DNA of 64,000 nt from NCBI GenBank assembly GCA_946612115.1, contig CAMOEI010000005.1, forward strand, positions 23,462 through 87,461, read 5' to 3'. This document shows positions 21,566-60,552 of this stretch, piece after piece; position 1 is the first letter of the stretch, and the number at the start of each line of letters is the position of its first letter. The position numbers and the translations under genes were made by a program. The notes below the pieces were generated by a model. That model worked only from the letters and a program-made list of their open reading frames with translations, was not told the origin of the DNA and made no database searches. The DNA comes from an uncultured Bacillales bacterium. GTDB taxonomy: Bacteria > Bacillota_I > Bacilli_A > RFN20 > CAG-826.

Positions 21566-22411
21566 TTAAGCTTGCGCTCCACCATTAGCTTTTCTAATGT
21601 CAGCGAGCATTTCTTGTAAGGCTTTATTGAAGAGCTCTTGCCATTTTGGTGCATTTGCTTGGACTCTGGTATTTAAACCATCAATTGCTTCTTTGAATAA
21701 ATCTGGGAAGTTTTTGTTGTCTCTTCTTTCTCTTCTACCTTCACTCATCTCAACGACTTGCAAGCATTTGTCTAAAGCATCTAATGAATCGTTATCGATG
21801 AAGTGGTTGTGCTCTCTGATGCTTCTAAGCATTTTCGCGTAAACACTTAATTCGTTTTGAACGATATAGTTAGATTGTGGAGTTGGTTTTCCTTGGCTTT
21901 CAGACATGACCTTTTGGAATTCAAAGAAAGATTTTTCAAAATCTTGCATGATTAAAAGAGTCGAGAATAAACGGTAGTGACGATCATCAACAGGCATTAA
22001 GTCTTCGATGATTGGTTCAGCTTCGTTATGTTGTCTAGCTAAATTGACATGGAAATAGATGATATCTCTAAGAGGTTCCATGATTTCGGTGACATATTGA
22101 TAAATCTTTAAATGTTGAGAGTGATCGACACGGATTTTTCCTTCAGCGGTTTTCACTAAGATTGTGGAATTATCTCCGTAGAGTTCATCTAACATCTCAC
22201 GATATTTCTCCATCATTTCAGTAAATTTATCTTTGTTGGCTTCTAAAAATTTACCAAGTGGAGTTTCAACTTCTAAACCTTTGGTTAAAACTTGTTTTCT
22301 TTGTTCAAATAATTTGGCGTCATGTTCACGAGGTAAAACATATTCAAGAGTGTCTCTTAAATGGGTAGCGACGTGAATAATGTCAAAATTGTATTGATTA
22401 ATGTTTTTCAT
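21566..22411 (-). CDS. Hypothetical protein with internal two-fold repeat (IIHVATHLRDTLEY / IYFHVNLARQHNEA); possibly DUF2935-like
   Basis: 281-aa ORF; strong SD GAAGGAGGACAATT-ATG; TGtgTATAAT extended -10 upstream; structured 5'UTR. Confidence 0.4.
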   Translation of the reverse strand: MKNINQYNFDIIHVATHLRDTLEYVLPREHDAKLFEQRKQVLTKGLEVETPLGKFLEANKDKFTEMMEKYREMLDELYGDNSTILVKTAEGKIRVDHSQHLKIYQYVTEIMEPLRDIIYFHVNLARQHNEAEPIIEDLMPVDDRHYRLFSTLLIMQDFEKSFFEFQKVMSESQGKPTPQSNYIVQNELSVYAKMLRSIREHNHFIDNDSLDALDKCLQVVEMSEGRRERRDNKNFPDLFKEAIDGLNTRVQANAPKWQELFNKALQEMLADIRKANGGAQA

Positions 22412-23234: not shown

Positions 23235-24404
23235 TTATTCTTCTAAAAGCTTTTTAATTTCGTTAACTTTGTCGAGTCTTTCCCAAGGTAGACTAACATC
23301 TGGTCGTCCAAAGTGACCATAGTTAGAGATATCTTGATATCTAAATGAAGGTGTCTTTAAACCAAAGTTTTTAATAATCATTCCGGGTCTACAATCAAAA
23401 ACAGTCTTGATGATGTGAAGTAACTTATCATCGCTATATTTAGAGCTATTAAAAGTATCGATGGCGATACTAATTGGATAATTAATTCCAATGGCGTAAC
23501 TAAGTTGAACTTCCACTCTTTCACTTGCGCCAGCGGCCACTAAGTTTTTAGCGATATATCTAGCCATATACGTTCCTGAGCGATCAACTTTAGAAGGATC
23601 TTTTCCTGAGAAAGCTCCTCCACCGTGATGAGCGCTGCCTCCATAAGTATCGACAATAATTTTTCTTCCAGTTAATCCAGTATCTCCAGCAGGTCCACCT
23701 AAAACAAATCTTCCAGTTGGATTGACTAAATATTTAAAATCATCGTTAAATCCGTACTTTTTTGCGATTTTTTTCATGATTTTTTCATGGATATATTCTT
23801 TGAATTTATCTAAATCAACATCCTCGTCGTGTTGAACTGACATCAAGATTGTATCTAGTTTTGGATTAGCTTTATCGGAATAATCAATCGTGACTTGAGC
23901 CTTCATATCTGGTCGAGCACCTTTAAAGACTCCACTTTTTCTTTGATTGGTGGCTTCTCTAACTAGATTATGCGCAATTGAAATTGGTAAAGGCATATAT
24001 CCTTCAGTTTCATTAGTAGCGTAGCCAAACATCATACCTTGGTCTCCCGCTCCTTGATCTTCTGGATTAGTTTGATTCACTCCTTGATTGATGTCCCCTG
24101 ATTGTTGTTGAATTTTATTAACGATTTGAATCGTGTGATAATCACAGCCATATTCAGGTTTATCATAACCAATCTCTTTTAAAACATTTCTAACAATTGG
24201 TTCGATGTCAATCTTGCCTTTGCAGGTGATTTCTCCTCCCACTAAAACATAGTTTGTGGTTGCAAAACATTCGCAGGCCACATGACTATTTGGATCGACT
24301 TTTAAACACGCGTCTAAAACCGCGTCACTAATTTGATCGCAGACTTTGTCTGGATGTCCTTCACTTACGGACTCTGATGTAAATAAGATTTTTTCTTTTG
24401 CCAT
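23235..24404 (-). CDS. metK: S-adenosylmethionine synthetase
   Basis: FTSESVSEGHPDKVCDQISDAVLDA, GGGAFSGKD motifs. Confidence 0.9.
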   Translation of the reverse strand: MAKEKILFTSESVSEGHPDKVCDQISDAVLDACLKVDPNSHVACECFATTNYVLVGGEITCKGKIDIEPIVRNVLKEIGYDKPEYGCDYHTIQIVNKIQQQSGDINQGVNQTNPEDQGAGDQGMMFGYATNETEGYMPLPISIAHNLVREATNQRKSGVFKGARPDMKAQVTIDYSDKANPKLDTILMSVQHDEDVDLDKFKEYIHEKIMKKIAKKYGFNDDFKYLVNPTGRFVLGGPAGDTGLTGRKIIVDTYGGSAHHGGGAFSGKDPSKVDRSGTYMARYIAKNLVAAGASERVEVQLSYAIGINYPISIAIDTFNSSKYSDDKLLHIIKTVFDCRPGMIIKNFGLKTPSFRYQDISNYGHFGRPDVSLPWERLDKVNEIKKLLEE

Positions 24405-24612
24405 AACTTTATTCCTATAAAAAACTTCCCCCAGAATTGGGAGAAGCTAATATATTCTTCTCGTCTTATCGTTCAAGGTTCTGGGGCCTTGCTAAGGAAG
24501 AGCACTTACTCTTTCGAGAGTTGCTACTGTGTTTTTACATTCCTTATTACACAGTTCTGGATAAGTGTGTTTATTATAAATAAATGATTTAGTAATATCA
24601 AGAGGATAAATT
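24405..24612 (-). promoter_or_regulatory. metK leader. Sigma-A-like promoter (TTGATA-17-TATAAT), ~150-nt structured leader with a P1-like pairing CUUAUC…GAUAAG, an antiterminator (CCCCAGAA) and an intrinsic terminator (CTTCTCCCaattcTGGGGGAAG+T6) ending 12 nt before the SD. Riboswitch-like attenuator, class unassigned.
   Basis: Hairpins read directly on the minus strand. No GGAGGGA / GGCAACC SAM-I core motifs found. Confidence 0.5.
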
Positions 24613-24619
24613 AATCAAG

Positions 24620-24647
24620 AAACAAAAAATCAGGACGAGCCTGATTA
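24620..24647 (-). terminator. Terminator AATCAGG-acgag-CCTGATT + T6, overlapping the stop of the 83-aa gene
   Basis: Seen in sequence. Confidence 0.75.
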
Positions 24648-25581: not shown

Positions 25582-25666
25582 GCGCAGGTGGCGGAACTGG
25601 TAGACGCGTACGTTTGAGGGGCGTATATCGCAAGATGTGTGAGTTCGATTCTCATCCCGCGCACCA
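25582..25666 (+). tRNA. tRNA-Leu (anticodon GAG), long variable arm
   Basis: GCGCAGGTGGCGGAACTGGTAGACGCG…loop UU-GAG-GG…GAGTTCGATTCTCATCCCGCGCACCA; 85 nt, encoded CCA. Confidence 0.8.
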
Positions 25667-26927: not shown

Positions 26928-28085
26928 TTATAGAAGTAGGGGCTTCTTGCTCGATGACTCTAATGAGCCAAGCATAAACAAGCTATCCGGATGTGTCCCA
27001 TCCTTAGTAAGCATTTCAATTCCCTTACGTAGAATATTTTTAGCTGCGTTTATATCTCGATCATGGACTGAGCCACATTGAGGGCATGTCCATTTTCTTA
27101 CTCTTAAATCTTTAGTGAGAGGATTTTGATAATTGCAGTAACTACATAATTGACTACTTGGATAATTAGTAGGAACCTTAACAATAACGTTCCCATACCA
27201 ATTAGCCTTATAAATAAGCATAGAAACAAATTTAGACCAACTCGCATCAGAAATGCTTCTAGCGAGTTTAGTGTTTCTAGTCATATTTTTTACTTTCAGG
27301 TCTTCAATACAAATGATTTGGTTTTCATCAATGATAATTCGAGAAAGTTTATGTAAATAGTCATTACGTTGATTCTCTATTTTCTTATGAATTCTAGCAA
27401 CTTTAATTCTTTGCTTGTTACGGTTATTACTACCCTTTTTCATAAGAGATAGTTTTCTTTGTTCTCTAGCGAGTTTATTTTGTGATTTGGTTAAGTATTT
27501 ATGGTTTTTATATTTATTCCCGTTAGAGTCAATAATTAGCTCTTTAATCCCTAAGTCTAATCCAATCGCATTATCTAAAAATTTAATAGATTCAGAATTC
27601 TCCTCAACAAGCAAAGAAATATAATACTTCTCATCCGTAGTCTTACTAACAGTTACAGATTTAATTTCACCTATAAAGTCACGATGCTTCTTTATTCTAA
27701 TACGAGGACATTTAGGAATAGATATATATCGGTCGTTAGAGGAGAACTTCACACTTCCCTGGTTATTTGTGGTATAGCTTTGATCATTCCTTTTAGATTT
27801 ATATTCAGGAAAACCATTTTGCTTTTTATAAAACGATTTAAAAGCCGCGTTTCTTGCTAATTGTGCGTTACATAAGGCTAAAGAATCAACATCTTTTAAA
27901 AATGGATAATCCTTTTTATATCTAGCGGGAGTGATATTTTCATTTTTACCAGTAGATTTATATATCTCACACATATCTGAAAGAGACTTATTATAGAAAA
28001 ACCTTACACATCCAAAAACTCTAGAGAAGTATTCCTTCTGACTAGCGTTAGGATAGATGCGATATTTATAAGCTTTTCTAATCAT
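26928..28085 (-). CDS. tnpB: IS605 OrfB/TnpB (RuvC-like nuclease + C-terminal Zn finger CSYC…CPQCG); RNA-guided (OMEGA) nuclease family
   Basis: MIRKAYKYRIYPN… N-terminus; GLDLGIKE RuvC-I; CxxC…CxxC near the C-terminus. Confidence 0.85.
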   Translation of the reverse strand: MIRKAYKYRIYPNASQKEYFSRVFGCVRFFYNKSLSDMCEIYKSTGKNENITPARYKKDYPFLKDVDSLALCNAQLARNAAFKSFYKKQNGFPEYKSKRNDQSYTTNNQGSVKFSSNDRYISIPKCPRIRIKKHRDFIGEIKSVTVSKTTDEKYYISLLVEENSESIKFLDNAIGLDLGIKELIIDSNGNKYKNHKYLTKSQNKLAREQRKLSLMKKGSNNRNKQRIKVARIHKKIENQRNDYLHKLSRIIIDENQIICIEDLKVKNMTRNTKLARSISDASWSKFVSMLIYKANWYGNVIVKVPTNYPSSQLCSYCNYQNPLTKDLRVRKWTCPQCGSVHDRDINAAKNILRKGIEMLTKDGTHPDSLFMLGSLESSSKKPLLL

Positions 28086-34138: not shown

Positions 34139-34214
34139 GGATGCTTAGCTCAGCTGGGAGAGCATCGCCTTTACACGGCGGAGGTCGGCGGTTCGATCCC
34201 GTCAGCATCCACCA
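34139..34214 (+). tRNA. tRNA-Val (UAC)
   Basis: GGATGCTTAGCTCAGCTGGGAGAGCATCGCC-TTTACAC-GGCGG…CCA; 76 nt; TTGATT-17-TATATT promoter ~50 bp upstream. Confidence 0.85.
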
Positions 34215-34238
34215 AGTAAATTACGCAGATATAGTTAT

Positions 34239-34322
34239 GGAGGGGTAGCGAAGAGGCTAAACGCGGCTGACTGTAAATCAGCTCCTTCGGGTTCGGCGGT
34301 TCGAATCTGCCCCCCTCCACCA
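34239..34322 (+). tRNA. tRNA-Tyr (GUA), long variable arm
   Basis: GGAGGGGTAGCGAAGAGGCTAAACGCGGCTGA-CTGTAAA-TCAGC…CCA; 84 nt. Confidence 0.85.
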
Positions 34323-34349
34323 ACTTGCTTCTAGTTTGGGGCAAGAGAT

Positions 34350-34424
34350 TGGGGTGTAGCCAAGAGGTAAGGCATCAGACTTTGACTCTGACATTCAGTG
34401 GTTCGATCCCACTCACCCCAGCCA
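34350..34424 (+). tRNA. tRNA-Gln (UUG)
   Basis: TGGGGTGTAGCCAAGAGGTAAGGCATCAGA-CTTTGAC-TCTGA…CCCCAGCCA; 75 nt. Confidence 0.8.
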
Positions 34425-34430
34425 TTAGTT

Positions 34431-34506
34431 GACTCGCTAGCTCAGTCGGTAGAGCACTTGACTTTTAATCAAGGGGTCCGGAGTTCGAATCTCCGGCGAG
34501 TCACCA
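34431..34506 (+). tRNA. tRNA-Lys (UUU)
   Basis: GACTCGCTAGCTCAGTCGGTAGAGCACTTGA-CTTTTAA-TCAAG…GCGAGTCACCA; 76 nt. Confidence 0.85.
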
Positions 34507-34521
34507 CTCAACTGACTATTT

Positions 34522-34608
34522 GCCCAGGTGGCGGAATAGGTAGACGCACAAGACTTAAAATCTTGCGAGGTTAAACTCGTACCGGTTCGATTCCGGTCCC
34601 GGGCACCA
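34522..34608 (+). tRNA. tRNA-Leu (UAA), long variable arm
   Basis: GCCCAGGTGGCGGAATAGGTAGACGCACAAGA-CTTAAAA-TCTTG…CCCGGGCACCA; 87 nt. Confidence 0.85.
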
Positions 34609-60202: not shown

Positions 60203-60552
60203 GTGAGTCTTCGATCCTGTAAGCCATGTTTTGTCTAGGATGATAATTTATCTAAGATTAACTTACTCGAGTCAATTCGTTTCTTTATCGAGTCTCCCCT
60301 ACCAAACTTGGGTTTCTCACTTACGGGGTTTACCGCGTTCCACCTTACCCTTTCAGATAAGCTCCGTCACTGTGGCACTTTCAGGAACTTTACCATGGAT
60401 TTCTCTTTAGGTTAGTTTCCGCCGTCACGTACTCCTACGTGCCTAGTGTTATTTTTTCCACTAGCGTAATCACTACAGCCATCACAGACTGTGCGAGCAT
60501 GGACTTTCCTCTAACTAACTAGTAGCCAGCAATCATCCAGACCGAAGGTTTA
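60203..60552 (-). ncRNA. rnpB: RNase P RNA, Bacillus type (type B)
   Basis: Minus-strand GAGGAAAGTCCATGCTCGCAC…GAAAGTGCCACAGTGACG…GGAACGCGGTAAACCCC…GAGAAACCCAA…GGTAGGGGA…ACATGGCTTACAG. P1 pairing CTTCGGTCTGG / CAGGATCGAAG. gpsB–rnpB synteny as in B. subtilis. Confidence 0.8.

Follow-up and report, generated by a model that had tools for sequence, protein, structure and literature searches.

The leader of metK in the analysed window, by which we mean the whole stretch of 64,000 nucleotides, is best read as a SAM-responsive transcription-attenuation riboswitch that is descended from SAM-I and would use the loop of its P4 helix for the readout (probability about 0.8). The leader is real and conserved, and the design of its expression platform is unusual. 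Judged by alignment and fold, it is a member of the SAM-I (S-box) lineage and clan and not a new SAM class.

The metK gene is encoded on the minus strand, and the leader was therefore read as the reverse complement of positions 24405-24612. MetK homologues carry the S-AdoMet_synt N, M and C domains (Pfam). The sigma-A promoter claimed in the original prediction is present (TTGATA/TATAAT) and matches the consensus at 11 of 12 positions; from it we infer a transcription start around 24566, 1-3 nt ahead of P1. Relatives have an equivalent promoter, which also places the start just ahead of P1. Between promoter and metK the leader measures approximately 160 nt, where ~150 nt had been predicted, and the P1-like CUUAUC…GAUAAG helix and the internal hairpins predicted with it all occur on the minus strand. 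The features are listed in Table 1.

Table 1. Position of the features of the metK leader in the window and the observations associated with them.
Feature	Position	Strand	Observation
metK (S-adenosylmethionine synthetase), regulated gene	23235-24404	minus	ATG at 24404
Shine-Dalgarno (SD) AGGA of metK	24416-24413	minus	
Intrinsic terminator	24419-24448	minus	stem 24448-24438 with 24433-24423, 11 pairs, 5 G-C; loop AUUC 24437-24434; U6 24424-24419
UUCUGGGG, 3' strand of antiterminator helix AT1	24429-24436	minus	three terminator-loop nt and first five of terminator 3' strand
GAGAAG, possible second antiterminator strand AT2	24457-24462	minus	6-bp complement CUUCUC 24446-24441
Aptamer, SAM-I-type four-way junction without kink-turn	24462-24568	minus	RF00162 38.7 bits; own model R1 109.5 bits; P1-P4 by RNAalifold
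P1 3' strand GAUAAG	24465-24470	minus	A100, A103 and G104 invariant although the strand was outside the search pattern
P4	24471-24492	minus	stem CAAGG/CCUUG 24491-24487 with 24478-24474; 8-nt loop; G-C closing pair 24492/24471; 4/5 pairs compensatory
P4 loop CCCCAGAA, 5' strand of AT1	24479-24486	minus	8/8 Watson-Crick with 24429-24436
Pseudoknot 3' strand UUCCUU in J3/4	24494-24499	minus	covariation
P3, SAM-pocket motif AGCAAC…GUGCU	24501-24525	minus	bulged A, 3' UA bulge; RF00162 alignment; distal pairs covary
P2	24526-24555	minus	7-bp stem 24555-24549 with 24532-24526; 16-nt A-rich loop; 6/7 pairs compensatory
Pseudoknot 5' strand AAGGAA in P2 loop	24540-24545	minus	all 6 pairs with 24494-24499 change on both sides
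J1/2 CAGA	24556-24559	minus	aligned to RF00162 consensus aAGA
P1 5' strand CUUAUC	24560-24565	minus	pairs with 24465-24470; 99.8 % of cells paired (103 sequences), strand partly fixed by the search pattern
Sigma-70/sigma-A-type promoter	24573-24601	minus	-35 TTGATA 24601-24596, 17-nt spacer, -10 TATAAT 24578-24573

Several other elements were noticed in the surroundings. A symmetric terminator-like hairpin, AATCAGGCTCGTCCTGATT (24628-24646, scored on both strands), lies in the gap that separates the TSCPD stop from the metK promoter. A tRNA gene on the opposite strand (25582-25663, plus, 43.6 bits) immediately precedes the PduL-TSCPD-metK block, and relatives L083, L087 and L097 have a tRNA at the equivalent position. 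The ORF at 26928-28085 (minus), 2.5 kb upstream of the metK block, displays HTH_OrfB_IS605, OrfB_IS605 and Cas12f1-like TNB domains and represents a TnpB / IS605-family element. Downstream of hpf, a 281-aa ORF (21566-22411, minus) had no Pfam match; its position is conserved in relatives, where ORFs of 279-284 aa were found (L081-L090). The class B RNase P RNA (60215-60544, minus, 269.8 bits) and a cluster of five tRNAs (34139-34605, plus) are consistent with a Bacillota/Bacilli-type host.

The relationship to SAM-I is visible in Rfam searches of the leader itself. The scan of the whole window at gathering score resulted in no SAM family, only RNase P class B and tRNAs, and the scan of 451 nt at E<=10 gave no SAM-family match. 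In the search with 121 nt, RF00162 aligned end to end (model positions 1-108 to 24567-24463) with 38.7 bits and an E value of 6e-8. The larger scans miss this match because their filters remove it, and the filters are laxer with 121 nt. The gathering cut-off of RF00162 is 44.4 bits and the window leader is below it. A confident Rfam hit to SAM-I, named in the original prediction as evidence against it, thus exists by its significant E value; the gathering score is not reached, and ordinary scans do not see the match. In the alignment, P1, the AGA of J1/2, P2a, P3, J3/4 …UCC, P4 and the P1 3' strand all correspond, and P3 is matched in GCAAC…GUGC, the bulged A and the two-nucleotide bulge on the 3' side. 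The canonical kink-turn/P2b segment GGAGGGAcuGGCCCuaUGAA (with GGAGGGA and CCC…UGAA) is replaced in the window leader by UAAUAAGGAAUGUAAAA. The leader had been predicted to lack two SAM-I hallmarks. The GGAGGGA kink-turn is indeed missing; the literal 7-mer GGCAACC is missing only in that it reads UAGCAACU, and the functional core GCAAC…GUGC is present. Within the SAM clan RF00162 was the best match, and no match at E<=10 was obtained to SAM-II, III, IV, V, VI or T-box.

We built our own covariance model, R1, from the variant aptamer. R1 has a single match in the window and also recognizes metK leaders of canonical SAM-I type from other Firmicutes (25-63 bits), so that the homology is confirmed in the reverse direction as well. 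The statement that the leader does not match SAM-I is contradicted by this result together with the full-length RF00162 alignment, and so is a different SAM-binding class, one of the two explanations offered at that time; the other, a divergent SAM-I, agrees with both lines of evidence. The dedicated covariance model recovers the variant at 54-117 bits. When 20 family members were scanned with Rfam, one (L121, of the short type described below) scored above the RF00162 cut-off with 49.7 bits, and three more had RF00162 matches below it (35.8-42.7 bits). Two kink-turn-less relatives, L001 and L121, pass the Rfam cut-off, and kink-turn-less sequences are probably already contained, unremarked, in the Rfam full alignments. 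The window leader has the junction, the pocket and the pseudoknot of SAM-I, and it lacks the kink-turn and stays below the Rfam cut-off.

The nearest relative among the listed species-representative genome matches is a Thomasclavelia MAG with a MetK 62 % identical. The leader of this MAG passes RF00162 at 54.7 bits and aligns by eye with the window leader. Relatives with MetK identity of 62 % or lower (species-representative collection, among the matches listed) served as canonical SAM-I comparators and were also of use for L001, and the window leader matches the canonical metK leaders position by position. MetK homologues 73-91 % identical were found in rumen and gut metagenome assemblies and 'Bacilli bacterium' MAGs, and these share the synteny PduL(PTAC)-TSCPD-metK-hpf and the same leader. 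A gene-agnostic pattern (CTTATYNAGAA…AGCAACYC…TAAGTGCY) run on metagenome contigs matched at least 120 further contigs, and at least 116 distinct homologous leaders were collected. Among the matches listed, a MetK ORF is located downstream in 119 of 134. Thirteen of the other 15 have no readable ORF, most likely due to contig ends, and two gave non-MetK ORF calls that we judged to be mis-picked frames; with these two counted so, the readable downstream gene is always metK. In the metagenome set, CUUAU, AGAA, AGCAAC and UAAGUGC do not vary because the search pattern demanded them, and their conservation there is partly circular; the same motifs are also invariant in the seven distinct leaders found via MetK. 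R1 run on 100 related contigs (L094-L193, 718 kb) gave exactly one match per contig, always at metK, and neither a second copy of the variant nor a canonical SAM-I was found by it in these 718 kb, which points to an S-box regulon that these organisms have reduced to metK. The kink-turn-less family includes a minority of short type (L099, L112, L121, L139, L161, L188, L208 and L213), in which P4 is very small and a classical antiterminator (GAUAAGGAAAGU with ACUUUCCUU) overlaps the 3' strand of P1.

The alignment of the family (A1) contains 103 sequences, and the structure tested on it consisted of the aptamer, the pseudoknot and the terminator. In A1, 89.2 % of cells are paired versus 79.3 % in shuffles, and the covariation score is 0.356 versus 0.168, with none of 500 shuffles reaching the score of the alignment. 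With the partners slid by 1-3 columns, pairing drops to 38-46 %. Conservation and covariation of the leader among relatives, to which the original prediction had tied itself, are both supported by these shuffles and by the at least 116 leaders. Compensatory changes were observed in 6/7 pairs of P2, 6/6 of the pseudoknot and 4/5 of P4, and the distal P3 covaries, while P1 and the proximal P3 are invariant. The pseudoknot is paired in 87 % of cells, for example as AAGGA/UCCUU versus AGAGA/UCUCU. RNAalifold returned the same four helices, P1-P4, with no structure supplied. From one subgroup to another, the MAFFT columns of terminator and AT2 do not line up, with the terminator helix only 59 % paired, and both were hence scored by per-sequence folding.

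The nucleotides of the SAM pocket are retained, namely AGA, GCAAC…GUGC and the A-U/U-A pairs of P1, the latter equivalent to the SAM-contacting A6-U88 and U7-A87. J1/2 contains the conserved G that corresponds to G11 in the T. tengcongensis structure, and its motif is invariant in the MetK-derived relatives, a set independent of the search pattern. The outer motif of P3 is fixed by the pattern and also invariant in the MetK-derived set; beside the pocket, P3 has a U-A in place of the canonical C-G pair. In P4, fragment positions G77, C78 and C98 do not vary, although the pattern did not impose them. P2 contains neither P2b nor a kink-turn, its loop is 15-17 nt long in 89/103 sequences, and the 3' half of the loop is conserved (AUGAAAAA). 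A residual P2b or kink-turn within the P2 loop was rejected, as its pairing (36 % of cells, 103 sequences) was no better than that of slid controls. Folding gave z = -2.3 versus shuffles for the aptamer alone and z = -2.7 for the full leader, and the minimum-free-energy fold of the aptamer alone consists of the CUUAUC/GAUAAG closing helix and three hairpins.

The terminator was correctly predicted, but its distance from the SD was not. Instead of 12 nt, its U-run ends 3 nt and its stem approximately 10 nt ahead of the SD. The terminator is part of the minimum-free-energy structure, and the region contains 5 terminator-like sites versus 0.4 expected. As in intrinsic-terminator attenuators, the 11-bp stem with U6 is combined with a mutually exclusive pairing backed by covariation, and the description of the metK leader as a riboswitch-type attenuator is consistent with this combination. 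The complementarity claimed between an antiterminator strand and the terminator was confirmed as a perfect 8-nt match of CCCCAGAA and UUCUGGGG that covaries in relatives. The AT1 helix is 85 % paired in A1 versus 38-50 % when slid. At the pair equivalent to G24481:C24434, 62 sequences have C-G, 17 have U-A, 15 have G-C and 2 have another combination, and the helix occurs in versions such as CCCAGAA/UUCUGGG, CCCAUAA/UUAUGGG and CCCACAA/UUGUGGG. The longest contiguous complementarity between P4 loop and terminator has a mean of 6.36 nt (92 sequences), versus 3.58 nt for shuffled loops and 4.76 nt for swapped partners. In 56/92 relatives the AT1 complement takes in 2 nt or more of the terminator loop. 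The terminator itself leaves these loop nucleotides unconstrained. These comparisons establish, at the level of sequence, that the P4 loop has been selected to be complementary to the terminator, and the P4 loop appears to be the antiterminator strand.

Regarding the second strand, the complementarity of AT2 in the family has a mean of 5.0 nt versus 4.0 nt shuffled and 4.5 nt swapped, and AT2 is a weak candidate for a second antiterminator helix. A complement of the P1 3' strand was not found downstream in the window type, which we refer to as the P4-loop type. By the nearest-neighbour model for the ligand-free RNA, the forced antiterminator state has -33.4 kcal/mol versus -38 to -39 kcal/mol for the aptamer-plus-terminator state. 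The latter is thus favoured by 5-6 kcal/mol even without ligand, and the antiterminator would therefore have to act kinetically. The 3' strand of AT1 is transcribed after the 5' strand of the terminator, an order that hardly suits an antiterminator. A closed P4 should sterically exclude the full 8-bp AT1, since the helices would cross with zero-length linkers.

We also noticed that CCAGAA at J1/2 (24555-24560, minus) is an exact copy of CCAGAA in the P4 loop (24479-24484, minus). In RNAfold of the 140-nt nascent transcript, the J1/2 copy pairs with UUCUGG of the terminator. This pairing is not conserved in the family, with C at that J1/2 position in only ~15/103 relatives; it was rejected and is probably incidental.

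The kink-turn between P2a and P2b of SAM-I is described as conserved, and it lets the P2 loop reach its pseudoknot partner (PMC2258182, PMC3651934). The window leader shares with SAM-I (RF00162) the P1-P4 junction, the CUUAUC/GAUAAG P1, J1/2 AGA, the P3 motif GCAAC…GUGC with the bulged A, the pseudoknot between P2 loop and J3/4, the position upstream of metK and the terminator/antiterminator platform. It differs from SAM-I by the lack of kink-turn and P2b, with a single P2 stem and an A-rich loop of 15-17 nt, by the score below the Rfam cut-off, by the G-C junction-closing pair directly beside P4, and by an antiterminator strand that would be located in the terminal loop of P4 and not in the P1 3' strand. 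With SAM-I/IV (RF01725) the leader has in common the core of the SAM clan, a P2 not split into P2a and P2b, and the presence of P4. SAM-I/IV, however, has no pseudoknot between P2 loop and J3/4 (PK-1), and its PK-2 joins the P3 loop and the 3' tail (PMC6890682), whereas the window leader has a covarying PK-1 and a short, variable P3 loop with no conserved partner. The SAM-I/IV architecture was rejected on these two features and on RF00162 being the best clan match. SAM-IV (RF00634) resembles the leader in the pocket, in PK-1 and in having a non-canonical turn where SAM-I has its kink-turn, but it has no P4 in the junction and carries P5 and PK-2 downstream of P1 (PMC6890682). A canonical, covarying P4 closes the four-way junction of the window leader, and the SAM-IV architecture was rejected for this reason. 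The element fits none of SAM-I/IV, SAM-IV and the spermidine class considered below. A functional analogy only can be drawn to the cobalamin riboswitch, where a terminal loop of the aptamer also pairs outside the core and sets the regulatory outcome through the pairing of loop and expression platform described in PMC2258182. There the loop pairs with ligand bound and expression is off, whereas in the window the pairing would take place in the ligand-free state and prevent termination; the sequences are unrelated. A limited literature search (SAM-I kink-turn variants, SAM clan, SAM-I antiterminators with P4 loops) yielded no account of a SAM-I that naturally lacks the kink-turn, nor of an antiterminator formed by the P4 loop.

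Based on these data, the leader could work as follows. In the aptamer, the 16-nt A-rich loop stands in place of the collapsed P2b and kink-turn and extends directly to J3/4. At high SAM, binding would lock P1 and the coaxially stacked 5-bp P4 and constrain the P4 loop, the 3' strand of the terminator would pair with its 5' strand, and transcription would stop ahead of metK. At low SAM, P1 and P4 would be unlocked and the P4 loop would pair with the 3' strand of AT1; the GAGAAG that follows P1 may keep the 5' strand of the terminator occupied, termination would fail and metK would be transcribed. SAM would be the ligand because of the identity of the pocket and the exclusive association with metK. 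The P4-loop pairing presumably belongs to the ligand-free state and would be disfavoured by the ligand in the way outlined. The coupling of SAM binding to the availability of the P4 loop is our conjecture, because the P1 3' strand has no downstream complement in the P4-loop type. Disruption of the kink-turn was reported to lower the SAM affinity (PMC3651934), and with the loss of the kink-turn SAM binding may be weak or altered.

It seems unlikely that the leader is an ordinary SAM-I whose switching relies on the P1 3' strand or on the neighbouring GAGAAG, with the complementarity of the P4 loop being a by-product, for example if this loop were copied from the 5' strand of the terminator. The short-type relatives do have an antiterminator of the classical kind that overlaps P1, many relatives have a P4 loop similar to the 5' strand of the terminator, and the thermodynamic preference for the terminator state also fits such an explanation. 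However, the P1 3' strand of the window type has no complement downstream to switch with, and the weakly supported GAGAAG/CUUCUC helix does not overlap P1. A by-product is also difficult to reconcile with P4-loop nucleotides that covary with nucleotides of the terminator loop, on which the terminator itself places no constraint. In canonical SAM-I the P4 loop varies, unlike the P4 loop here, which is conserved. Readout through the P4 loop remains our preferred reading.

A changed ligand, such as spermidine, SAH or another relative of SAM, is very improbable for this SAM-I-derived aptamer, despite its sub-threshold Rfam score and altered periphery. There is a precedent, since SAM-I variants sensing spermidine are known, with one validated example on a metK gene (Salvail et al. 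2023, PMC10853860), and the spermidine riboswitch resembles the window leader in its four-stem aptamer derived from SAM-I, in its transcription terminator and, for one representative, in metK. The spermidine variants alter the pocket, with AAUAG instead of AAGAG in J1/2 and GGCAAACC…GGGGCC in P3 (internal loop GCAAACC…GGGGCC), keep the kink-turn region (GAGACGAGGGGUCGAAGA) and are associated with polyamine genes (PMC10853860). The window leader shows the opposite, an unchanged pocket with a changed periphery: neither the window nor any relative has lost AGA, GCAAC or GUGC, changes occur only in the peripheral P2, and the association is exclusively with metK. The diagnostic pocket changes are absent from the window leader, and its identity as a spermidine riboswitch was rejected. 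A SAM riboswitch class distinct from SAM-I, or another kind of leader such as a T-box or a protein-bound attenuator, could account for the absence of Rfam matches at gathering score and at E<=10 in the 451-nt scan. We consider it practically negligible given the significant full-length alignment to RF00162, the reciprocal matches of the models, the position-by-position agreement with canonical metK leaders and the lack of matches to SAM-II, III, IV, V, VI and T-box at E<=10.

The metK leader thus reveals neither a new ligand nor a new riboswitch class. At somewhat less than even odds, and hence only tentatively, it may represent a distinct subclass within the SAM-I clan that is restricted to metK and widespread among uncultured Bacilli from gut, rumen and digesters, with a pseudoknot but no kink-turn, and with the ligand read out by a P4 loop that competes with the terminator 5' strand, and not by the P1 3' strand. 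If so, it would deserve its own model alongside SAM-I/IV and SAM-IV. The variant is invisible to standard Rfam annotation, and as a consequence metK in a whole group of uncultured Bacilli would be scored as having no SAM riboswitch. A natural lineage that has the pseudoknot and lacks the kink-turn and P2b offers a ready test of whether the kink-turn is necessary. The covariation between P4 loop and terminator points to an expression platform that would use a peripheral loop of the aptamer instead of P1, which is uncommon for SAM-I.
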